DNA from: Ignavibacteria bacterium
GTDB taxonomy: Bacteria > Elusimicrobiota > Endomicrobiia > PHAN01
Length of the DNA: 14,428 nucleotides
Direction of reading: 5' to 3'
Assembly: GCA_041694835.1 (NCBI GenBank)
Contig: JBGFRZ010000074.1
Location: 1 to 14,428 of the forward strand
Below, piece after piece: positions 2,303 through 13,886 of the stretch (positions are counted from its first letter, which is position 1; each line of letters begins with the position of its first letter). The translations under genes and the position numbers were made by a program. Below the pieces are notes generated by a model that had not been told where the DNA came from, ran no database searches, and worked only from the letters and a program-made list of their open reading frames with translations.

Positions 2303-3172
2303 ATGAAGATATTTCTTGACGGAAAATTTGTCGAAAAAGAAGAAGCGAAATTGTCTGTTTTCGACCATGGATTACTTTACGGCGACGGAGTCTTTGAGGG
2401 AATCCGCGCTTATCACGGCAGAGTTTTTAAACTTAGAGAACATATAGACCGCTTGTTTAACTCCGCTCGCGCAATAACACTTTCAATACCTTTAAGCAAG
2501 GAAGAAATAGAAAAATTAGTTTTGGAAACTTTGAGGATTAATAAACTCAAGGACGCCTATATAAGACTTGTCGTCACAAGGGGCGTCGGAGATCTTGGAT
2601 TGGATCCGAACAAATGTTCGAAGCCGACGATTTTCATAATAGCCGACAAAATAAAGCTCTATCCCGAAGAGTTTTATAAAAAGGGGCTTGAGATAGTAAT
2701 AGTTTCGACGAGAAGAAACATCCCCACCGCTATAAATCCGTGCATAAAATCGCTGAATTACTTAAACAACATTCTCGGAAAGATTGAAGCGAATAGAGCG
2801 GGAGTGCCTGAAGCCATAATGTTGAACTCAGAAGGATATGTGGCGGAATGCACAGGCGATAACATATTCATTCTGAAGGAACATACACTTCTGACACCCC
2901 CTGCATGGGCCGGAGCGCTCGATGGAATAACGCGACTGACTGTTATGGGACTTGCCAAAAACAAACTGAAACTTTTCGTAAAAGAGGATCTGATAACGCC
3001 TTATCATCTATACACCGCCGACGAATGTTTTCTTACGGGCACCGCCGCCGAAGTTATTCCCGTTACGAAGATAGATTCGCGAATGATAGGCGACGGTCTC
3101 CCCGGGAAAGTGACTTTGAATTTGATAAAAGAGTTTCACGAGTTAACCAAAACGACCGGTGTTCCGATATAA
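2303..3172 (+). CDS. ilvE: Branched-chain amino acid aminotransferase (PLP fold type IV)
   Basis: Motifs 'FDHGLLYGDGVFEGIRAY', 'IKSLNYLNN' (PLP lysine), 'EGYVAECTGDNIF', 'LDGITR' and 'ADECFLTGTAAEVIPV'. ATG 2303 is preceded by GGAG at 2294-2297. Confidence 0.95.
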   Translation: MKIFLDGKFVEKEEAKLSVFDHGLLYGDGVFEGIRAYHGRVFKLREHIDRLFNSARAITLSIPLSKEEIEKLVLETLRINKLKDAYIRLVVTRGVGDLGLDPNKCSKPTIFIIADKIKLYPEEFYKKGLEIVIVSTRRNIPTAINPCIKSLNYLNNILGKIEANRAGVPEAIMLNSEGYVAECTGDNIFILKEHTLLTPPAWAGALDGITRLTVMGLAKNKLKLFVKEDLITPYHLYTADECFLTGTAAEVIPVTKIDSRMIGDGLPGKVTLNLIKEFHELTKTTGVPI

Positions 3173-3174
3173 AT

Positions 3175-3579
3175 ATGCTGTGTGAGAGATGTAAGAAAAA
3201 CGAAGCGTCCGTTTTCATAGATGCCGAGATAAACGGCGATAAGATGAAATTTTCTCTCTGCCATGGGTGTGCGTTGAAGGATTTAAACATTAAAGTGTTT
3301 TTTGAGCACGCCATGCCGCTTCCTCCGAATGTTGATATTATATGCCCCGGATGTGGAATGTCTTATGCCAAAATCAGGAAACTAATGAGATTCGGATGCG
3401 CCCGATGCTACGACCTATTAGGCGATTACATACTTGAAAAACAAGATGCCGCAACGGATTCAACTACGCCACCTGACGACTACGAAGAATTGAAGAAGAA
3501 ACTTTCTTTGGCTGTCAAAAAAGAGGATTATGAGGAGGCGGCCAGGCTCCGCGACGAGATCACAAAATTAAAAAAATGA
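3175..3579 (+). CDS. mcsA: McsA, activator of the protein-arginine kinase (CxxC zinc motifs plus UVR domain), 134 aa
   Basis: True start 'MLCERCKKNEAS' is 2 nt after the ilvE stop. Four CxxC motifs (CERC, CHGC, CPGC, CARC) and a C-terminal UVR motif 'AVKKEDYEEAARLRDEI'. Directly upstream of mcsB. Confidence 0.88.
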   Translation: MLCERCKKNEASVFIDAEINGDKMKFSLCHGCALKDLNIKVFFEHAMPLPPNVDIICPGCGMSYAKIRKLMRFGCARCYDLLGDYILEKQDAATDSTTPPDDYEELKKKLSLAVKKEDYEEAARLRDEITKLKK

Positions 3580-4655
3580 AAATGTCGGAAAGCGTCCATG
3601 ATTTTGTTCTTAAAAACAAAGCCGTTTCGCGTAGTTCCAGAATACTCGTAGATACACGACTTAGGTATGCTCGCAATTTTAGCGAATATCCGTTCCCCTC
3701 GGCTATCGATAAAGCCCATGCCGAATCCGTCTGGTGTGTTGTTTCCGACGCTCTCGGCTCGTTCGATGTTTTTAAGAATGGCTACAAGTTTTATCTGCCG
3801 GATCTCGGGAGGACCGAGAGGATATTGCTTATAGAAAGAAGGGCGATTTCACCCGATATGCTTAAGTCGCGAATTCCGTCCGGAGCGATTTTGTCGGGCG
3901 ATGAAAGAATGTCCGCCCTTATCAACGAAGAGGACCATCTCAGATTAAGTGTTTTCGGCTCGGACGTCTTGTCTGAAGAAGGATTGTGCGCGAGCATCGA
4001 AGAGCTGAATTCCGTTGAAGCGCGATTGTCCGGGAGTTTTGATTTTGCCTATAGAAAAAAATACGGTTATCTGACTTCTTGCCCCACGAATCTCGGGAGC
4101 GGTTTAAGAATATCCGGGCTTTTCCATCTGGCTGGTCTAGTGCTCACAAAAAAGATAAATAAGTTTTTGGAAACCCTTGAGTCACGCGGGGTTGTCATAA
4201 GAGGATACTACGGCGAAAAAAGCAGATTTTTGGGAGATGTGTTTCAGATATCAAGCGGCGCCTCTGTCGATGAGAAAGAATCTTCGTCCCGGATGTCGGT
4301 TTTGTTTAGAAAAATCGAGAGTGAGGAGTTGAAAGCGAGGGAAGAGTTGAGCGCTCCCAAAAACAAGACCCGATGTGAGGATATAATTTACAGGAGCTTC
4401 GGGATACTTGAAAATGCCAGAATAATTTCGTTCGCGGAGGCTGTCTCGGTATTTTCACTTGTTCTATTGGGGAAACATCTTGGACTTGATATTCCTCTCG
4501 ACGAAGAAAATATACATCGCATGATGAGAAACACGCAGCCAGCCCACATTCAAATGTTCGCTGGAAAAGAGTTGAACTCAAAGATGAGGGATGAGTTCAG
4601 AGCGGAATATATTAGAAAGAGTTTAGGGGCGAGAGACGATAGCACAAGAGCATAA
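3576..4655 (+). CDS. mcsB: Protein-arginine kinase McsB
   Basis: ATP:guanido phosphotransferase motifs 'RLRYARNF', 'INEEDHLR' and 'YLTSCPTNLGSGLR', plus 'QPAHIQ' and the C-terminal RDxxRA motif ('RDEFRA'). ATGA overlap with mcsA. Confidence 0.92.
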   Translation: MKMSESVHDFVLKNKAVSRSSRILVDTRLRYARNFSEYPFPSAIDKAHAESVWCVVSDALGSFDVFKNGYKFYLPDLGRTERILLIERRAISPDMLKSRIPSGAILSGDERMSALINEEDHLRLSVFGSDVLSEEGLCASIEELNSVEARLSGSFDFAYRKKYGYLTSCPTNLGSGLRISGLFHLAGLVLTKKINKFLETLESRGVVIRGYYGEKSRFLGDVFQISSGASVDEKESSSRMSVLFRKIESEELKAREELSAPKNKTRCEDIIYRSFGILENARIISFAEAVSVFSLVLLGKHLGLDIPLDEENIHRMMRNTQPAHIQMFAGKELNSKMRDEFRAEYIRKSLGARDDSTRA

Positions 4656-4745
4656 GTGCATAAGTCACCTGTCATCCATCATTTCACTATTCACTATTTG
4701 CTATTTGCTATTCGCTGTCCTCCATTCTCTATCCGCTATTCTCTA
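4641..4745 (+). repeat. Composite short tandem repeat: 3 x 8-mer (WGCAYAAG) followed by ~9 x 7-mer (CTATTCN)
   Basis: AGCACAAG AGCATAAG TGCATAAG at 4641-4664. Then CATTTCA CTATTCA CTATTTG CTATTTG CTATTCG CTGTCCT CCATTCT CTATCCG CTATTCT CTA at 4680-4745. Confidence 0.85.
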
Positions 4746-4766
4746 AACTAAAAATTGGAGATAAAA

Positions 4767-7217
4767 ATGTCGCACAGATTTACGGAAAGAGCTCAAAAAG
4801 TGGTAAGCGCCGCTCAGTCCGAGGCCAGAAGATTGAATCACGACTATGTTGGAACTGAGCACCTTTTGTTGGCGCTTGTTTCCCTTGAAGACAGCGTTTC
4901 CGCAAGAGTTCTTACGAATCTCGACATCGACAGAAAGAGGGTAAAAAACGAGATAGAAAAGATAGTAGGAACCGGCGACAATGTGATGCTTATAGGAGAA
5001 ATCCCATTTAGCCCGCGCTCCAAGAAAGTACTTGAGTATGCCGTCGATGAGGCTCAGAAGATGAACCATACTTTTGTGGGCACGGAGCACATACTCCTCG
5101 GGATTTTGCGCGAGGGCGACGGCGTCGGAGCGAGGGTTCTTGAAACACTCGGGGCTAACCTTAATGATGTAAGGGAGGAAATAATTAATCTTATAGGAGG
5201 CGAGGAACAGGCAGAAACGCTTTACGGCGCAAAAAAACCAACCCAGAAGTCCAAAAGTCCGATACTAGAATCTTTTAGTCGTGATTTGACGCGCCTTGCG
5301 CGCGAAGACAAACTTGACCCCGTCATAGGAAGGACGAATGAAATAGAGCGTCTTGTCCAGATACTTTCCAGAAGGACGAAGAACAACCCTGTTTTGATTG
5401 GCGACCCCGGTGTCGGAAAAACAGCGATAGTCGAGGGCCTCGCCCAGATGATAGCCAACGGCGATGTCCCGGAGATTTTGATGGAAAAAAGGGTAATGAC
5501 ACTGGATCTCTCGGCGATAGTCGCTGGAACGAAGTATAGAGGGGAGTTCGAGCAGCGATTAAAAAGCATCATGGAGGAGATAAGACGCTCTAAGCAGAAC
5601 ATAATACTTTTTATCGACGAACTCCACACGGTTATAGGTGCTGGCGCGGCGGAGGGTTCGATAGATGCCTCTAACATGCTCAAGCCGGCGCTAGCTCGCG
5701 GAGAGCTTCAGTGCATAGGCGCGACGACCCTTGACGAATATCGTCGGCACATAGAGCACGATGCCGCCCTCGAAAGGAGGTTTCAGCCAATCGTTGTCGA
5801 CCCTCCTTCAGTCGAAGAGACGATAAGGATTCTGAAAGGCCTCAAGGATAAATACGAAAGTCATCACAAAGTAAAATACACTGACGACGCTCTGACTTCA
5901 GCCGCGGAACTTTCCGAAAGATACATATCCGACAGATACCTTCCCGATAAGGCCATAGATCTCATAGATGAGGCGGGGGCGAAGGCGCGTCTCAGTTCAA
6001 CGAATATTCCGGAGGAGTTGAAGAAGCTTGAGACCGTTCTTGAGGGAATCACGAAAGAAAAAGAGCTCAACATCGCATCTCAGAACTTTGAGGGTGCAGC
6101 GAAACTCAGGGACACGGAAAGGGAGCTCAAAAAAAATATAGAAGAAGAAAAAAAGAAATGGCGTCAGTCGAGAGATGAGATGAGGCCGTCGGTCTCATCC
6201 GACGACATAGCGTCGATTGTATCCAAATGGACGAACATCCCGGTTACGCGTCTCACCGAAAAAGAGCAGGAACTCCTTTTAAATCTCGAGGAGGAGATAC
6301 ATAAAAGGGTGATAGGCCAGGACGAGGCCGTAAAGGCGATATCTCGCGCGCTCAGGAGATCAAGGACCGGTCTCAAGGATCCTTACAAACCGATTGGGTC
6401 ATTCATGTTTTTGGGTCCAACGGGCGTTGGAAAGACTGAGCTCGCCAAGGCTCTGGCTTACGTTTTGTTCGGCGACGAAACCGCTCTTATAAGAATAGAT
6501 ATGTCGGAGTTTTCCGAAAAGTTTACCGTTTCACGACTCATAGGCGCTCCGCCGGGATATGTGGGGTACGATGAGGGCGGTCAGCTTACGGAGCAGGTGA
6601 GGAGGAGGCCGTATTCCGTAGTGCTTCTTGATGAGATAGAGAAATCTCACGCTGATGTTTTCAACATGCTTTTGCAGATTATGGATGCCGGCGCTCTCTC
6701 GGACAACCTCGGACACAGGGTCAACTTCAAAAACACGGTCATAATAATGACATCTAACGTCGGGGTGAAGCATCTTTTCAGCGGCAAATCGCTCGGGTTT
6801 TTGGTTCAGGAAAGCCATATTGACCAGAGCGTGATGAAAGAGACGATAACTGACGAGCTAAAAAAAGTTTTCAACCCTGAGTTTTTAAACAGGCTCGATG
6901 AAATAATAATATTCCATCCTTTGAGTAAATCCGATATAAGGAAAATTCTCGAGCTTCTCATCGACAAGGTCGACGACAGGATGAAAAAGATGAAGATAAA
7001 CCTGAAATTCACAAATAACGCCCTGGATTTTCTAATGGAAAAGGGCTTCGACCCGCAGTATGGAGCGCGCCCTCTGGCGAGAGTGATTCAGAGGTATCTC
7101 GAAGATCCGCTGGCAGATGAAATGCTCAAAAAAAACATCTCAATAAGCACGAAAGAAACGGCTGATGTTGTTGTGGATTACTCTGTCGAGGACAAAAAGC
7201 TAACTTTGAGAATTTGA
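4767..7217 (+). CDS. clpC: ATP-dependent Clp protease ATP-binding subunit ClpC
   Basis: Two Clp-N repeats ('YVGTEHLLL', 'FVGTEHILL'), two AAA+ modules (GDPGVGKT/LFIDE and GPTGVGKT/LLDE), a UVR-type middle domain ('FEGAAKLRD'), pore loop 'PPGYVG' and ClpP-docking 'LGF'. ATG 4767 follows GGAG. Confidence 0.96.
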   Translation: MSHRFTERAQKVVSAAQSEARRLNHDYVGTEHLLLALVSLEDSVSARVLTNLDIDRKRVKNEIEKIVGTGDNVMLIGEIPFSPRSKKVLEYAVDEAQKMNHTFVGTEHILLGILREGDGVGARVLETLGANLNDVREEIINLIGGEEQAETLYGAKKPTQKSKSPILESFSRDLTRLAREDKLDPVIGRTNEIERLVQILSRRTKNNPVLIGDPGVGKTAIVEGLAQMIANGDVPEILMEKRVMTLDLSAIVAGTKYRGEFEQRLKSIMEEIRRSKQNIILFIDELHTVIGAGAAEGSIDASNMLKPALARGELQCIGATTLDEYRRHIEHDAALERRFQPIVVDPPSVEETIRILKGLKDKYESHHKVKYTDDALTSAAELSERYISDRYLPDKAIDLIDEAGAKARLSSTNIPEELKKLETVLEGITKEKELNIASQNFEGAAKLRDTERELKKNIEEEKKKWRQSRDEMRPSVSSDDIASIVSKWTNIPVTRLTEKEQELLLNLEEEIHKRVIGQDEAVKAISRALRRSRTGLKDPYKPIGSFMFLGPTGVGKTELAKALAYVLFGDETALIRIDMSEFSEKFTVSRLIGAPPGYVGYDEGGQLTEQVRRRPYSVVLLDEIEKSHADVFNMLLQIMDAGALSDNLGHRVNFKNTVIIMTSNVGVKHLFSGKSLGFLVQESHIDQSVMKETITDELKKVFNPEFLNRLDEIIIFHPLSKSDIRKILELLIDKVDDRMKKMKINLKFTNNALDFLMEKGFDPQYGARPLARVIQRYLEDPLADEMLKKNISISTKETADVVVDYSVEDKKLTLRI

Positions 7218-7429
7218 AACAAATGAAAAAGAAAAAGGAAGAATCGTTATCAGAAAAATTGCCGGCAGAACATCCGAAGGAAACCAATCTTATAGAGGCT
7301 TACTTCAAAAGGTATGGTGTTTATTTTCCGAAGGACGTGATTAAAAAAGTCAGCGGGCACATAACTCTCACGCTCAGGGAAATATACAACACCATCAGAG
7401 GGGACAATTCTAAAGGCAAAAATGAGTAA
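7214..7429 (+). CDS. Small hypothetical protein (68-71 aa)
   Basis: Fills the clpC-tamB gap exactly: its TTG overlaps the clpC stop and its own stop overlaps the tamB start by 8 nt (alternative ATG at 7223). No motif recognised. Confidence 0.55.
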   Translation: MKQMKKKKEESLSEKLPAEHPKETNLIEAYFKRYGVYFPKDVIKKVSGHITLTLREIYNTIRGDNSKGKNE

Positions 7430-10400
7430 AAAGTTCCTCGTCGCATCGCTCCTGATTTGTGCGGCGTTTGTTTTTTTCTTTTTTTTTTCGGTTAGAGCCG
7501 ACTTTCTTAAAAATCACATAAGAAAAAACGCTGAAAAATCCGGCTTCAAAGTTTCTATAGAAGCCGCTTACTGGCGACTGCCGTTTAAGATACATCTTAA
7601 AAAGGTCTCTCTGGAAAGCGAAGAATTTACATTTTCTTCCGATGATACCACACTTTCAATCTCTCCATTAAAATATCTCCTTAAAAAACCGTTCCTGGGG
7701 GTTTTTCTAAAATTTCCGTCGATAATGATAAAAAACATTCCCGAAGTTGCGCCCGGCCGCGCCGCGGTCCTGCCGATAAGCGGAGTGAGTGTTGAAGGGG
7801 GAACTATCAGCCATGGCGCCGTCTTTTTCGAAAACATAAACGGCAATGTCGGTTTCGATAATGACAGAGTCAACGGATTTGTTAAGGCGACGGTGAAAAA
7901 ATCGAAGATATTTTTAAGAGCAAGAACTGTCGACAAAGATATTCTCGTCGATACGATAATAGACAATGTAGATTTATCGGATTACACCGGACTGAATCTG
8001 CCCTACGTAGGCAAGATAATCGTTAAAAATCGGATTTCGAAAGGCGTTTTGTCGGCAAAAATAAAAGGAAACATCTCGGATTTCGTTTTTACCGGCGAAG
8101 GTAGCTACGAGAAAAAGAAGGATTACTCGTTAAAGATTGACTGGAAAAAACAATCCGGAGGGAGTTTTTCAGAGGGGAGTTTCGATTTGTCGGGGCAGAA
8201 CGGGGGCTTTGATTTCGACGCAACATCGGGTGAGTCTTATTTGTCGGGCTCTGGAGAAGTCATAGGCGGCGAAATACGTCTGAGTGTCTCCACTTCAACC
8301 ATAAAAATTCCGGAGATAAAGAGTTCTTTTTATCTGCGCCTTAATGCTGCGTTCGGCACGGATAAAAAAAGACTCTCGGCCGATATTACAAGTGAGACGG
8401 ATTATGATAAGAAATATAGGGCGACCTCAAACATTCTATTGGCGGACGGGACTCTGTTTTTTTCAGGCAAGATCGCTCCAAAAGATACGACTTTCGATAT
8501 AAGGATAAAAAATTTCCGCGAAATAAGCGGCGAAATCTCGGGGAGCAAAAAATCCAGAATAACTCTCATGGGTAACTTATCGCCTGTAAGGATATTCGTG
8601 AAAGCTTCCGGGTGGGAAATTTCGGAAACCCCGTTTTTCGCATCCCCATCCATGGGAAAGATTTTTTCTGACGGAGAGTTTTCCATGAGCGCAGGCGAAT
8701 GGCTTTTCAAGTCGCAGACGTCGCTTAAAAACATACGGTGGGATGGCAGAAAATTCGACGATGTGTCCGCCAGATTATTGGTCAGCAGAACTTTGATTTC
8801 CGTAAGCGATATCGACTATTCATACGGAAAAATCACGGGCAGCTATAAAAATGTCTACGGAGCAAGGAAGGAAATTTCATTTAGGGCATCCGGCGCTCCC
8901 ATTGAACCACTATCGCTTTTTATCGGACGCCCTATCTCGGGGACGTTGAAAGGAGAGTTCGCTCTGACATCTGAAAATGGCGTCTCCGCTGGCAAGATGG
9001 ATATAGACGCGAAAAAAATAACTGTGAAAAACGCTGACATAGGAGACATAAAGGCTTTTGTAAAATTCGAAGGTAACACCGCTTCTTTTGAAAGAATTCT
9101 TATCAAAAATGACTTCGGCCGAATTGCGGGCGGGGTGGCCTCAATAGATAAAAGAGTGGGGGGAATGTTGAACTTTGTTTCTTATTCTTTCGACGGCAAA
9201 ACACCGCTCTCGGGCAGATTGCATTTATCGGGCGAATTCGGGAATTTCAATGATTTTTCGATTAAATTGAACTCCGAAAATTTTACTTTTGGAAAATTAT
9301 TTCGGAACGTCCCTTTGAGCTTCGCGTTTAAGTCGGAAAAGGAGAGCGTGAAAATATCAGGTTTTCGCTTTGGCGAAGTCAGAGATGCGCATCTCAGGGT
9401 CGAAAAGACTCCGTCGCGCAGGATTTCCGGCGCGATAAATGTGGACAACTTTGATTTGGGCAGGATATCCACTGATTTATCCGGTAGTTTGAACTCGGAC
9501 ATCAATCTCTATGGCGACATGGAAAATCCCATGATTTCTGCACTTTACGAAGTCAAAAATCTGTGCTGGCGAAAAAGTTCAAGCGGGAGTCTCAAGGGGA
9601 AGGCAAGAATAGAAAAAGGTGTTGTCAGAATATACGAAACTTCGGGTGATTTTGAAGGAACAAACGTTAAAGTAAGTGGAACTGTAAGCGACAAAATCGA
9701 TATAAGAGCCGAGGTCTTATCCGTCGATGTTTCAAAGATAATACTCTCCAGAGCCATTAAATCCGGCTCGCTTAAATCGGAGATATCGCTGACCGGCAAG
9801 GTCTCTTCTCCTTATTTAATCGCCAAAGGCGAGCTCGGAGGATTGGATATTTCGGGAATGCGGTTTGAAAAAGTCGTTTTTGAGGGAGCATACTCTGACG
9901 GTGCAGCTGAGCTTAAAAAAGCGTCTGTTATATTCAATGGCAATGAACTCGCCATAGAAGAAAAAAGCCGAATCGATTTCGTCAAAAGAATCTTTGATAT
10001 CAATTTTTTGTCGAGAAATTTTAAAGTCGGGTTCTTAAGCGTTTTGGGTAGGGCGAAGATTAAAGGAAGCTACCGCCTTGCCCCCGCTGGTTTTGAGGGA
10101 CGGATCGAACTTTCCGATTTTTGGATAGGCGAGAAGAAGTTTGCGCGGGAGGTCTTGTATTTTTCGGCGGATGATAAAAATCTGACGATGGACATCGCCG
10201 AAAATAAGGAAAAATTTGTTTTTTCCGTCGATTACTCGACCGCCGAAAAAGTTTTCAAGTTGGATTATTCGCAAAGAGATGGCGGAACGCTTTCGGCGAG
10301 CGGCTCTTATAGAGCACCCGAGATTAGGCTTGATATAAAAGCGGTGTCTTTGAAAACCGGCGCCTTGTCCTCCATGCTTGATATGCCGTTTGAGTTAAAC

Positions 10401-12071
10401 GGTTTGGGCGATATAAAAGGCTCGCTTACAGGAGTTCTATCGAACCCTTACGGAGATTTGAGTTTGACAATTAAAAACGGCTCTCTCGGCGGAGTAGCGT
10501 ATGACGAAATATCCTGTGATATCTCACTCAGGGAGAGCATCGTTACGGTCGAGAGGTTTTCTATTTCAAAAGCCGGTAAATACAGGGTTTACGCAAACGG
10601 CTATGTGCCGGTTTTGCTTGATCCGGGCACCGCCCCAAAAATAGCCGCTCTTCCGAACAACCTTACGGCAACGCTCGAGGGGGGAGAGCTCGGCTTTCTG
10701 GCGGGAATTTCCGTATTCAAAAACGCCGAAGGGCCCGTGGCTGGCAAACTCGAGCTTAAAGGCACTCACTCATCCCCAAAACTTGCTGGTTTTTTAAGGA
10801 TAGAAAATGCGAATTTCGGCCTGACAACTTATCTCGCCAAGGTAGAGAACTTCAATCTATCCGCCAGATTGAAAGACAACGTTCTTACGCTCGAAAATTT
10901 TTCGGGTCGCTCCGGCGCCGGCCGCTTTATGTTGAAAGGGAGAGCCCTTATGGAGAACTTCTTACCTGCTGCAATGGATTTTTCGTTTGAAAGCACGACA
11001 GCGAGCGGCGTCGACATATTTGTCCCGGAACTTCCCATGCCAGTCCCATTTTCGAGGGAAACAGGGGTAAAATTCGCAACGTCAGCTTCTTACGGGAAGC
11101 CGAGGTTCAAGCTCTCTTTTTTGGGTGACGCTCGAAAAAAATTGCTTCTGGCCGGATGGATTGAACTTGATAATACATATTTTTCCTACCCACCCCCCCA
11201 TATGACTGCCGTTGAGGACCCTTTAAGGGAGTTCTTGAAAAACGTCGAGTTGGATCTCATGCTTAAAACCGGAGAAAACACATGGTATGAAAACGAACTG
11301 GCATCGGTCAACATAGATGGTTCTCTGAATGTTAAAGGAAACTGGTACGCTCCGTCAGTCTCTGGCGCGGTTGAGACGAAAAGGGGATATATATCTTATA
11401 TTGGCACCGAGTTTAAGGTAAAGATGGCTCGCCTTGAGGTTGTTGGCGATGAGCCGCATTTGGAAGGCTTGGCCGAAAAAAATATCCCCTCCGAAAAGGG
11501 TTACGACACAATTCAGCTCATTATCGACAAATCTCCCGTAGGGAAAATACAGCCGAGATTTGTTTCGGCCGACAACCCGACTCTCTCTTCGGAAAAGGTC
11601 TTGGCGAGGGTAATCGGCATAGATCTTGAAAGGACATCGCCCGTCGAGAGGGAGCTGATGCTAAGACAGGGACTGATAAGGCTTATCGACTCTTCGCTAG
11701 CGACTCCTCTCGCCAGGAACCTCTTGAGAAAAAGTGGGATAGTCGATTTGATGAAAGTAAGTTATGAGCCGCCGCCGATTTCGGAATCTCCAAGGGCGGA
11801 ACATCCTGCGACAATACCAGAGTTGTTAAAAGGCACGAAATACTCTTTTGAGAAGTATGTGACCGACACCATGCTGCTGGGCTACAGCGTTACTCTCGAC
11901 GAGTATCTCAGTAAACTGGATTTGAAGCATGAACTTGAAATCGCCTACAGACTAAGAGGCTCTGTATTTGTGCGCGGACTTTACGAGATAGACACTCAAT
12001 CTCTTATCAGGCCGCCCGAAAGAAGGATAACTGTTGAAAAACATTGGCGTTTTGGTTGGCCGAAAAAATAG
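7422..12071 (+). CDS. TamB/AsmA-like translocation and assembly module protein (1549 aa)
   Basis: N-terminal hydrophobic anchor, long Gly-rich amphipathic beta-strand repeats (e.g. 'LTGKVSSP', 'LKGTHSSPKLAG', 'GSLNVKGNWYAPSVSGAV') and C-terminal beta strands ending '..EKHWRFGW', as in DUF490/TamB. Confidence 0.85.
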   Translation: MSKKFLVASLLICAAFVFFFFFSVRADFLKNHIRKNAEKSGFKVSIEAAYWRLPFKIHLKKVSLESEEFTFSSDDTTLSISPLKYLLKKPFLGVFLKFPSIMIKNIPEVAPGRAAVLPISGVSVEGGTISHGAVFFENINGNVGFDNDRVNGFVKATVKKSKIFLRARTVDKDILVDTIIDNVDLSDYTGLNLPYVGKIIVKNRISKGVLSAKIKGNISDFVFTGEGSYEKKKDYSLKIDWKKQSGGSFSEGSFDLSGQNGGFDFDATSGESYLSGSGEVIGGEIRLSVSTSTIKIPEIKSSFYLRLNAAFGTDKKRLSADITSETDYDKKYRATSNILLADGTLFFSGKIAPKDTTFDIRIKNFREISGEISGSKKSRITLMGNLSPVRIFVKASGWEISETPFFASPSMGKIFSDGEFSMSAGEWLFKSQTSLKNIRWDGRKFDDVSARLLVSRTLISVSDIDYSYGKITGSYKNVYGARKEISFRASGAPIEPLSLFIGRPISGTLKGEFALTSENGVSAGKMDIDAKKITVKNADIGDIKAFVKFEGNTASFERILIKNDFGRIAGGVASIDKRVGGMLNFVSYSFDGKTPLSGRLHLSGEFGNFNDFSIKLNSENFTFGKLFRNVPLSFAFKSEKESVKISGFRFGEVRDAHLRVEKTPSRRISGAINVDNFDLGRISTDLSGSLNSDINLYGDMENPMISALYEVKNLCWRKSSSGSLKGKARIEKGVVRIYETSGDFEGTNVKVSGTVSDKIDIRAEVLSVDVSKIILSRAIKSGSLKSEISLTGKVSSPYLIAKGELGGLDISGMRFEKVVFEGAYSDGAAELKKASVIFNGNELAIEEKSRIDFVKRIFDINFLSRNFKVGFLSVLGRAKIKGSYRLAPAGFEGRIELSDFWIGEKKFAREVLYFSADDKNLTMDIAENKEKFVFSVDYSTAEKVFKLDYSQRDGGTLSASGSYRAPEIRLDIKAVSLKTGALSSMLDMPFELNGLGDIKGSLTGVLSNPYGDLSLTIKNGSLGGVAYDEISCDISLRESIVTVERFSISKAGKYRVYANGYVPVLLDPGTAPKIAALPNNLTATLEGGELGFLAGISVFKNAEGPVAGKLELKGTHSSPKLAGFLRIENANFGLTTYLAKVENFNLSARLKDNVLTLENFSGRSGAGRFMLKGRALMENFLPAAMDFSFESTTASGVDIFVPELPMPVPFSRETGVKFATSASYGKPRFKLSFLGDARKKLLLAGWIELDNTYFSYPPPHMTAVEDPLREFLKNVELDLMLKTGENTWYENELASVNIDGSLNVKGNWYAPSVSGAVETKRGYISYIGTEFKVKMARLEVVGDEPHLEGLAEKNIPSEKGYDTIQLIIDKSPVGKIQPRFVSADNPTLSSEKVLARVIGIDLERTSPVERELMLRQGLIRLIDSSLATPLARNLLRKSGIVDLMKVSYEPPPISESPRAEHPATIPELLKGTKYSFEKYVTDTMLLGYSVTLDEYLSKLDLKHELEIAYRLRGSVFVRGLYEIDTQSLIRPPERRITVEKHWRFGWPKK

Positions 12072-12316
12072 CAGGAATGAGAAGTTAAAAATACAGCAAA
12101 GTCGATAAATCTCGCCGTGCTCTTGATGTTGTGACGGATGTTAGAATTTTGAAGATGTGCGTTTAACTATACTGGAAGACAACTATGGCTTACTGAAAAA
12201 TGCTAAAAATTCAAGCAACTACGACGGAAATTAAACAACTGAAACTATAAAAACAACGCTCAAAGTGCACGATTTTTTGCTATTCTTATGTAAAAACCTT
12301 GCCACGAAGTAGAAAT

Positions 12317-12770
12317 AGGACGCGGACCTTCGCAGATGAGTTTATAGTTGTTTTAATCTGCGTTTATCAAAGTTGTTTCTGCGTTCATCTGCGTTCAATT
12401 ATTTTTTAGGACGCAGATTTACAGGATTATCGCAGATTAAAAACTTTACCGCGAAATCACGAAAATTAGAAATCACAAAATTCTTTACAAGTATTTTCGT
12501 GTTTTCGCGCTTTCGTGGTTCAAATCTTTTTTCATCTGCGTCTATCTGCGTTCAACTATTTTTCAGGACGCAGATTTTCGCAGATTCAATGGATTTCAAA
12601 AACATCTGCGTCAATCTTCTTGTCAAATCTGCGTTCATCTGCGTTCAATTATTTTTTAGGACGTGGATTTTCGCAGATGAGTTTATAGTTGCTTTAATCT
12701 GCGTTTATCAAAGTTGTTTCCGCTTTCATCTGCGTTCAATTATTTTTTAGGATGCGGACTTTCGCAGATT
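12317..12770. repeat. Array of 4 complete plus 1 partial palindromic units built from 10-mer arms
   Basis: Units start with AGGAYGYRGA at 12317, 12408, 12565, 12658 and 12749 (lengths 91, 157, 93, 91) and end in ATCTGCGTTCAAYTATTTTTY. Units 1 and 4 differ at 6 of 91 positions. Confidence 0.92.
12448..12519. repeat. Nested inverted-repeat element with 8-mer-period arms (CRCGAAA / TTTCGYG)
   Basis: Left arm ACCGCGAAATCACGAAAA; right arm TTTTCGTGTTTTCGCGCTTTCGTGGT (12494-12519). Its 72 bp roughly account for the extra length of array unit 2. Confidence 0.8.
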
Positions 12771-12783
12771 TGGTAGATATTAA

Positions 12784-12985
12784 GGGTCTTCTCCATTTTT
12801 TGTTGTGCGTACAAAAACAAAGTGTTTGAGCGGGTTTAATCAAGTGTAAACGCTTGATTGCCCCAGTCCCGATTTATCGGGACGAGAATGAGCGAAAATA
12901 CATAGTCAGACAATTAACCCCACACACATCATAGCGGTATTGCAAAATCTCTACCCACTGTTACAACAACATTTGGAGAAGAGCC
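12784..12985. mobile_element. MITE-like element with ISL3-like termini (202 bp)
   Basis: Left end GGGTCTTCTCCATTTTTTGTTGT vs reverse complement of right end GGCTCTTCTCCAAATGTTGTTGT: 19/23 match. Internal hairpins at 12838-12859 and 12866-12883. No ORF and no clean target duplication. Confidence 0.6.
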
Positions 12986-13008
12986 GAAATTTTTAAGTCG
13001 CATAAATT

Positions 13009-13036
13009 TTGATTTCTTACGGCATTTTTATATAAT
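13009..13036 (+). promoter_or_regulatory. Candidate sigma70-type promoter upstream of the MITE/HNH gene
   Basis: TTGATT (13009-13014), 16-nt spacer, TATAAT (13031-13036). Confidence 0.45.
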
Positions 13037-13212
13037 GAGCTCGTTGAAAAACCTTAATCTTTTGAACGATTTGGCAGTTTCAGGTTAAAAGTTGAAATCG
13101 TTTAGACCGCAATGTCTGACGAGCAAAGCGAGGAGTTTTGCGGTCTGATTGAAACTTTTAACCGTTAAGAAACTGCCCTTTAAGTGAAAAAGATGGGTTT
13201 TTCAACACTCTC
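13037..13212. mobile_element. 176-bp palindromic MITE with 5-bp target-site duplication
   Basis: Termini GAGCTCGTTGAAAAACC / GGTTTTTCAACACTCTC, flanked by ATAAT at 13032-13036 and 13213-13217. Nested perfect stems: GGCAGTTTC/GAAACTGCC (13073-81/13169-77), GGTTAAAAGTT/AACTTTTAACC (13083-93/13153-63), AGACCGCAA/TTGCGGTCT (13104-12/13138-46). Confidence 0.8.
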
Positions 13213-13225
13213 ATAATTTCAAAGT

Positions 13226-13825
13226 ATGTCAGAAGTGCTTGTTTTAAACAAAAATTTCTACGCTATACAAATAACCTCATGGAGGCGCGCCATCGGACTT
13301 CTCTACATAGAACATGCCGATGTCGTTGATCAGGAATACCGCACTTACAACTTCTCCGACTGGTGCGAGATGTCGAGATACGTTAAAGAACATCCGTCGG
13401 GCTTCATAAGAACACCGACGTTCAGGTTTGTTTTTCCCGAAGTGATTGCCCTGAAATTTTATGACAAACTTCCCGCTGCGGAGGTAAAGTTTACAAGAAA
13501 AAACATCTATGAACACTATCGACACAGGTGCTGCTATTGTGGCAAAAAACTCCCCACTTCCGAGCTAAATCTCGACCATGTAGTACCCAGAAGCCGTGGC
13601 GGGAAAACTACATGGGACAACATAATTACTTCATGTGTTAAATGCAACATAAAAAAAGGCAACAAGCTTCCATCCGAAGCGGGTATGAAGCTGTTAATAG
13701 TCCCCTCCCGGCCAAGATGGTCGGGAGCTTTTTCTCTCGCTTTGAGAGCGAATATAAGGATGAAATCATCATGGCAGAAGTTTATAGACAGCGTCTACTG
13801 GAATATAGAACTTGACAGCGAATAG
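13226..13825 (+). CDS. HNH endonuclease (McrA-like, zinc-binding), 199 aa
   Basis: 'CCYCG...LNLDHVVPRSRGGKTTWDNIITSCVKCNIKKGNK' is a CxxC-DH-N-CxxCN HNH motif. The N-terminal 'VLVLN...SWRRAI.LL' and 'PEVIAL' are typical of a widespread standalone HNH family. Confidence 0.93.
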   Translation: MSEVLVLNKNFYAIQITSWRRAIGLLYIEHADVVDQEYRTYNFSDWCEMSRYVKEHPSGFIRTPTFRFVFPEVIALKFYDKLPAAEVKFTRKNIYEHYRHRCCYCGKKLPTSELNLDHVVPRSRGGKTTWDNIITSCVKCNIKKGNKLPSEAGMKLLIVPSRPRWSGAFSLALRANIRMKSSWQKFIDSVYWNIELDSE

Positions 13826-13886
13826 TAAAAAGTGCATAATGAATGACGAATAACGAATAACTTGTGCACTTGTGCTCTTGTGCACT
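13814..13886 (-). repeat. Second copy of the composite 8-mer/7-mer repeat, in inverted orientation
   Basis: The minus strand reads AG TGCACAAG AGCACAAG TGCACAAG TTATTCG TTATTCG TCATTCA TTATGCA CTTTTTA CTATTCG CTGTC. Confidence 0.8.

Follow-up and report, generated by a model that had tools for sequence, protein, structure and literature searches.

The repeat array between the tamB-like gene and the HNH-domain gene was real, and it was a variant of intergenic mosaic repeats built from an apparently undescribed cassette family. The window, that is, the whole stretch of DNA that was analysed, was 14,428 nt long and comprised the entire contig C38 of a 1.9-Mb genome in 89 contigs. The best reading, to which a probability of roughly two in three was given, was that the units are non-autonomous, gene-less cassette remnants, partly inside transposon-end shells, and that recombination at the arms they have in common both multiplied and rearranged them. 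The array looks like selfish non-coding repeat DNA between genes and not like a conserved functional RNA.

The interval between the end of tamB (12071) and the start of HNH (13226) contained four units in full and the beginning of a fifth, with 12-nt linkers joining them (Table 1). The units followed the order A-B-C-A' and then the truncated fifth unit (module D). Each unit opened with an arm in which two or three words followed each other at intervals of about 10 bases, and it closed with the complementary arm. The palindromic units, inverted arms and conserved linkers of the preliminary description were indeed present where it had placed them, with a word density far above chance. The 7-base core word or its complement occurred in 16 exact copies within 440 nt; genome-wide, 618 core words were counted against 154-201 in five shuffles, and 134 two-word blocks against 0-1. 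The close spacings of core words were exactly 10 in 73 of 146 cases. The succession of interiors A, B, C and A was confirmed, and A1 and A2 differed at 6 of 79 positions. The start-to-start spacings of the units were 91, 157, 93 and 91, so the proposed unit size of ~91 bp held for three spacings but not for B. The element nested in B matched the upstream arm of a GxxExxY gene (L151) at 18 of 19 nt. An ORF of 125 aa at 12373-12750, which was without a Pfam match, was taken as spurious.

Table 1. Coordinates of the array, its units and the neighbouring features in the window, with the contigs of one related subfamily.
Feature	Position	Strand	Length	Description
tamB-like gene	7422..12071	+		Upstream host gene, outside the element; ORF, Pfam PF04357; orthologues beside HNH in G001 and G002
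Repeat P	12184..12317	+		Left end and inner flank of the transposon-end-like shell carrying the array; right end missing here
Unit A1	12318-12396		79 nt	Commonest module; 26 typed A units genome-wide, 25 aligned gap-free
Linker	12397-12408, 12554-12565, 12647-12658, 12738-12749		12 nt	Most frequent internal linker, with 27 exact copies in the linker list
Unit B	12409-12553		145 nt	24 typed B units in the genome; fold z -6.7
Nested inverted-arm element inside B	12448-12519			Second word family; at other loci also without the outer arms
Unit C	12566-12646		81 nt	4 typed C units, plus variants carrying an insert
Unit A2	12659-12737		79 nt	Nearest copy on contig C89 (2 differences)
Unit D, left part	12750-12783		34 nt	First 34 nt, cut by element Q; whole D found at other loci
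Repeat Q	12784-12985		~200 nt	Separate miniature element with inverted ends, inserted into D; about 33 other loci
Promoter-like -35/-10 pair	13009..13036	+		Probably the native HNH promoter; 1 found against 3.2 expected by chance
Repeat R	13037-13212		176 nt	Separate miniature element with inverted ends; about 43 other loci
HNH-domain gene	13226..13825	+		Downstream host gene (Pfam), outside the element, vertically conserved
Shine-Dalgarno-bounded subfamily	Contigs C10, C18, C39, C52, C64 and C71 of this genome (G000); one end at C65 and C55

The modules of this array recurred throughout the genome. The genome parse gave 186 candidate left arms, of which 96 were typed into 12 modules at 53 loci; of the 90 untyped arms, which included many right arms read on the opposite strand, only those within a typed locus were kept, and the parse divided some arrays. 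Single units made up 24 of the 53 loci, and the other 29 held two to five units. These 29 arrays showed 26 different module orders, and 27 of them were mixed and only 2 of one type. The units of any one array shared one orientation, both by construction of the parse and by inspection. Copies of A inside the same array had 1, 6 and 6 differences, compared with a between-locus mean of 4.0; because they differ as much within an array as between loci, array neighbours are not closer kin. In chimeric units, an internal arm word marked the junction between the left part of B and the right part of A or C. Furthermore, one linker type consisted of the right inner flank of the shell joined to its left inner flank, as expected from tandem duplication. 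Tandem junctions were seen at 30 of the 53 loci here and at 3 of the 241 loci listed from other genomes and metagenomes, one of which was clearly real. The shared modules, mixed orders, chimeras, flank-to-flank linker and rarity elsewhere fit recombination or gene conversion at shared sequence and not local slippage, and recombination was probably the shuffling mechanism. Hence, the proposal that units were duplicated or shuffled as modules stood insofar as modules common to many loci had been reshuffled, but exchange sometimes ignored the unit boundaries, as in the chimeras. Other palindromic repeats, which by eye resembled CGTC/dRS3-type hairpins, lay just inside the left arm of several units (C39:18707-19107, C61:35495, C63:9370 and C64:21001).

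The constant junction, the variable interiors, the single polarity and the preferred A-then-B order (11 of the adjacencies counted) would also be expected of an integron- or CRISPR-like store, in which the arms serve a dedicated recombinase for adding, removing and ordering cassettes, and the interiors are stored information. This explanation was considered highly improbable. The interiors came from about a dozen types reused across loci and were not unique spacers, crossovers also occurred inside units, and the arrays were short (at most 5 units) and scattered. None of the 53 loci carried a gene, and no ORF cargo was found among the 36 facing arm pairs within 300 nt in this genome, where the longest ORF was 44 aa, unlike integron cassettes, which carry ORFs between their sites; the suggested analogy with attC arrays as cargo stores was therefore not supported. 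The Pfam scan of the 10 ORFs in the window revealed no integron integrase.

The unit order could in principle be an artefact of short-read metagenome assembly. The contig overlaps indicated k = 121, the segment 12352-12517 (166 nt) was identical to another locus, and several contigs ended in arrays. However, the adjacencies counted included the B-C junction and the C-A junction only once each, and any exact shared sequence spanning them was shorter than 121 nt. Moreover, the copies carried private differences, and tamB and HNH were neighbours in relatives, hence the contig joins the right genes. An artefact was the least probable of the explanations considered.

The array was the middle of a larger repeat composite, and positions 12184-13217 were nearly all multicopy. 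Repeat P had matches at about 8-9 other loci. A P-type left end was combined with an array and a similar inverted right end on contigs C56, C67 and C68, and with a different arm-bounded cargo on contig C46. The terminal inverted repeats of shell P were thus present, with similar inverted ends bracketing both arrays (C56, C67 and C68) and other cargo, and the shells may have moved by transposition. Contigs C6 and C64 likewise had D interrupted by Q, and there its second half was retained. Bacterial MITEs are non-autonomous, multicopy elements with inverted ends that originate by internal deletion. The units are likewise non-autonomous, multicopy and inverted-ended, and the shells P, Q and R fit the description of MITEs; the units' own ends differ in that they consist of arrayed words and are linked to a gene of a non-DDE type. 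Three Pfam queries revealed no intact DDE transposase for the shells in this assembly, which was 97% complete and in which repeats are often unassembled. The DDE_Tnp_1 query of the assembly returned one sub-threshold fragment, and the queries for the PF00078 reverse transcriptase, DUF772 and the ISL3 transposase had no match in it. The shell-end motif had 31 matches in viral contigs.

In the probable HNH promoter, repeat R lay exactly at the -10 box, the last five bases of which were present on both sides of the repeat. The -35/-10 match is weak taken alone, given the number expected by chance (Table 1). In two relatives (G001 and G002), a -10 hexamer lay 8 nt before the HNH start (L419 2580-2620; L420 2575-2625), and this distance from the start codon suggests that the HNH transcript may be leaderless. 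Orthologues of HNH with 57-76% identity were found in 15 of 30 relatives. HNH was also considered as the mobiliser and was rejected because it was a conserved single-copy neighbour of tamB. An end copy of the R type lay at 107-126, just upstream of a DNA methylase gene (PF01555) that overlapped an NgoFVII-like restriction nuclease gene at the start of the contig (196-2209). A UVR-domain gene, an arginine-kinase-like gene and a ClpC-like ATPase gene followed consecutively at 2905-7217 (Pfam), and we take this row to resemble the mcsA-mcsB-clpC operon.

The arrays were compared with the corresponding sites in relatives. The array was absent from the tamB-HNH interval of two same-family genomes (G001 and G002), in which the gap was about 40-45 nt, compared with 1,154 nt here. 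The gap at the apt array site was less than 60 nt in all five relatives, compared with 302 here, and that at the C80 array site was near zero in the one relative having the gene pair, compared with 330 here; at the ROK-gene array site, the upstream partner was not conserved in any of four relatives. The short gaps at the tamB-HNH site and at two of the three further sites indicated that the arrays were lineage-specific insertions. No match of array length was found among 30 relatives, and of 200 other genomes in the phylum, 3 had the 20-nt arm pattern. The core of module A had 0 matches in metagenome contigs, a set outside which near-identical records possibly lie, and the left arm had 0 matches in viral contigs.

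These comparisons also bear on the explanation that the array is a functional structured RNA or a regulatory switch, with unit-length hairpins released by processing or with a two-fold toggle controlling HNH. The folds were stable: the fold of 12300-12790, computed as DNA, had z = -6.9. Both alternative pairings that had been proposed could be computed, with -24.7 kcal/mol (z -4.2) within unit C and -20.9 kcal/mol (z -6.5) across the linker. Moreover, the array lies between co-oriented genes and may be transcribed. However, the cross-linker fold was a by-product, since 24 of the 53 loci were single units, and the probable HNH promoter was downstream of the array. Only five weak Rfam matches were obtained, all far below the gathering cut-off. 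Relative to the flanking genes, the loci were oriented 18 in the same and 20 in the opposite direction, and the wobble-strand test on arm substitutions gave 18 against 18 changes, hence no strand preference. Array gaps were not enriched for co-oriented genes (38 of 42; among all gaps of at least 100 nt, the count was 505 of 571). A functional RNA was thus very unlikely, in view also of the empty orthologous gap in G001 and G002 and the lack of an array-length match in the 30 relatives, and the processed RNA suggested in the preliminary description was not upheld in conserved form.

The arms were also found around genes for a small nuclease-like protein. GxxExxY genes were identified by Pfam PF13366, which we take to be TIGR04256/GxxExxY, and the GxxExxY motif was visible in the translation of the PF13366 gene of this genome. 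The association of the arms with such genes, which the preliminary description had put forward, held. This genome had one GxxExxY gene, which lay on contig C61 and was intact and flanked by related arms. In L150, from the same phylum, identical arm letters enclosed a whole GxxExxY gene, and the arm letters also adjoined the gene in L207 and L293. In L207, the left arm of the array at 12318-12783 abutted the stop of the gene on the other strand. The left arm and the 3' end of the gene were tandemly duplicated in L207, and an empty unit followed the gene; this locus is a possible intermediate in array building. Complementary flanks (at least 4 shared 7-mers) were found for 26 of 40 full-length GxxExxY genes, compared with 5 of 152 shifted controls; mismatched flank pairs were complementary in 166 of 1,560 cases. 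The 40 genes were those with enough flank, among the best matches listed from the phylum, one archaeal class and one further genome. The arm words differed from gene to gene and remained complementary within each gene, and 14 of the 40 genes were without clear arms. Hence, arm letters or arm design were shared by the units and 26 of the 40 genes, and the units here differed in being empty and arrayed. In L329 (G203:C103) and L074, the GxxExxY gene lay between outward-facing arms, which is the position of the linker between two units. Two genomes of the archaeal class sample, G300 and G272, had 13 and 7 PF13366 matches, mostly fragments, which suggests that many copies may be decaying within one genome.

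The units in this genome may descend from gene-bearing cassettes. Among the arm-picked loci listed, 5 of 120 from GTDB and 6 of 121 from metagenomes had a GxxExxY match, many of these loci having only 300 nt of flank, and short empty units numbered 36 of 120 and 63 of 121, respectively. The DNA directly inside the arm scored as the N-terminal codons of the gene at 11 of 112 metagenome loci, two of which were gene-bearing or part-gene, compared with 1 of 112 in each of two controls. Some gene-less units elsewhere thus keep the first codons of the gene, and internal deletion is a route to empty units. No coding remnant was found in the modules of this genome, in which the best profile matches were arm words. 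The 3' half of module A and the downstream arm of the genome's own GxxExxY gene matched in 32 of 40 columns; this match ranked first (score 36, followed by 34) for a single variant of A, and it did not rank first for A1.

A generic repeat-making process was weighed against this descent. Slippage and template switching would write inverted arms of 7- to 10-base words at gene junctions, the GxxExxY and four-helix-bundle genes would be passengers, and the units would never have carried a gene. This genome had 15 four-helix-bundle (PF05635) matches (L003-L017), most of which were framed by inverted tandem arms of heptamer-type words that differed in sequence from the unit arms and also between loci; inverted word arms are therefore not exclusive to the nuclease. 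The lack of a coding remnant in the modules here agrees with such a process, as do the arms elsewhere, most of which were gene-less or unpaired, many having no facing partner at all. However, identical copies of the 20-nt arm occurred in unrelated phyla as well as next to the nuclease gene, empty units elsewhere kept the first codons of the gene, and the interiors were copied whole between loci, which is impossible for local slippage. The generic process was accordingly judged unlikely, and descent from gene-bearing cassettes was preferred. Several of the PF05635 genes had near-identical ends in common. In the window, heptamer-word arms like those around the four-helix-bundle genes lay between genes at 4642-4719 and 13814-13883.

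The structure of the GxxExxY protein was predicted with a pLDDT of 92 from 44 sequences. The model was nearest to the Cas4 protein SSO0001 (E 7.6e-5, TM 0.57), with other PD-(D/E)XK nucleases behind it, and the acidic and lysine residues of the PD-(D/E)XK motif were conserved; a search of the PDB with the nuclease sequence gave nothing significant. The predicted nuclease may have a role in moving or cutting the hairpins. In the available part of one paper, PF13366 was tabulated as of unknown function with multiple transfers (PMC3424549), and the family is also mentioned in the part available of 10.1101/2021.01.26.428298. No description of arms around GxxExxY genes was found in the literature searched, which covered few subscription papers, excluded supplements and included no query with the motif letters.

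A subfamily of the arrays lay at ribosome-binding sites. Six loci had both outer flanks in common around different units (114-316 nt), with a Shine-Dalgarno pentamer on both sides and a mismatch in one left copy. All 7 right ends of this type lay 5-9 nt before the ATG of a host gene. Insertion at the site accompanied by a short duplication could explain these flanks, as could selection of copies that provide a site. The array at 12318-12783 was outside this subfamily.

The array architecture was closest, by analogy, to the NIME arrays of Neisseria, which are described in the available sections of PMC1797815 as dRS3 repeats flanking RS elements. According to these sections, new NIME variants are thought to come from recombination, the array length varies between strains at syntenic sites, and such arrays were stated in 2007 to be unseen outside Neisseria. 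The two systems share conserved inverted ends around many families of short interiors (50-200 nt in NIME) and arrays of different interiors with other repeats inserted, namely Q in D and hairpins inside arms here and also IS elements in NIME (PMC1797815, sections available). The ends here differ in being 20-nt arms of 10-base-spaced words that are not self-palindromic and that pair across the unit, and the arm, compared by eye with the 20-bp self-palindromic dRS3 consensus, was not the same repeat. Moreover, the arms here elsewhere frame a nuclease gene, the arrays are short, and no link to a phage recombinase was seen.

The analogy with REP and BIME clusters, which the preliminary description had also drawn, applied to the architecture only. 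As far as the available parts of PMC3333891 and PMC3733652 describe the REP/BIME/REPIN-RAYT systems, the units here share with them an intergenic position, inverted pairs and linkers, copies in tandem, chimeras, and a small gene that is flanked by the same repeats and is the candidate mobiliser. By the definition given there, a REP or REPIN has a palindrome of 20-40 nt, a GTAG or CGTC tag and a stem of 8-9 bp; here, in contrast, arm pairs with arm across the unit, and there is no short tagged stem-loop. Tandem BIME copies at one locus are well conserved according to the same parts of these papers, and neighbours here were mostly of different types. Furthermore, the arm-flanked gene here encodes a protein of predicted PD-(D/E)XK fold and not an HUH Y1 transposase, and the one Y1 (PF01797) gene of this genome had no arms in the ~170 nt upstream or in the post-domain stretch examined (partly intragenic). 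The units are a member of neither NIME nor REP/BIME-RAYT because their sequence and their candidate enzyme differ from both. The heptamer arrays of Xanthomonas, Nostoc and Beggiatoaceae are likewise intergenic tandem repeats of short words near gene starts (available parts of PMC4692102 and PMC4679880); the period there is 7, whereas here it is 10, an arm comprises two or three words, and different loci share copies of whole units.

A probable course of events can be outlined. Each unit would have arisen, without the gene, from a small cassette that consisted of a GxxExxY (PF13366) nuclease gene between two complementary arms, with the arm words at 10-base spacing. A dozen empty units with different interiors would have become founders in this lineage and would have been joined head to tail. 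Recombination or gene conversion would then have increased their number and changed their order from locus to locus, acting at the shared arm-linker-arm junctions and occasionally at arm words inside units. Some of the arrays lie inside miniature transposon-end shells, and other miniature elements landed in the arrays later. A bolder proposal, which is tentative and for now rather doubtful, is that GxxExxY is the mobiliser of widespread, undescribed hairpin-bounded elements and a Cas4-like counterpart to RAYT/REPIN. The nuclease would cut the extruded arms, and host repair would copy filled or empty units into gene junctions, and in one subfamily ribosome-binding sites would serve as anchors. 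On this view, the genome would be a snapshot of an active bloom, in which one intact nuclease gene drives about a hundred empty units into NIME-like arrays outside Neisseria.

Arrays of the NIME type have been described as a speciality of Neisseria and their origin has been left open, whereas the ends here could be traced to a specific small nuclease cassette, which provides a testable origin and a candidate enzyme. The kit in this one genome is complete: the gene is intact, one module has 25 alignable copies, and there are chimeras as well as orthologous sites without an array. Should the nuclease turn out to move the units, this would be a new kind of non-autonomous element system; otherwise, the arrays would still be a clear example of shuffled repeats by which the operon gaps of one lineage have grown about 25-fold.
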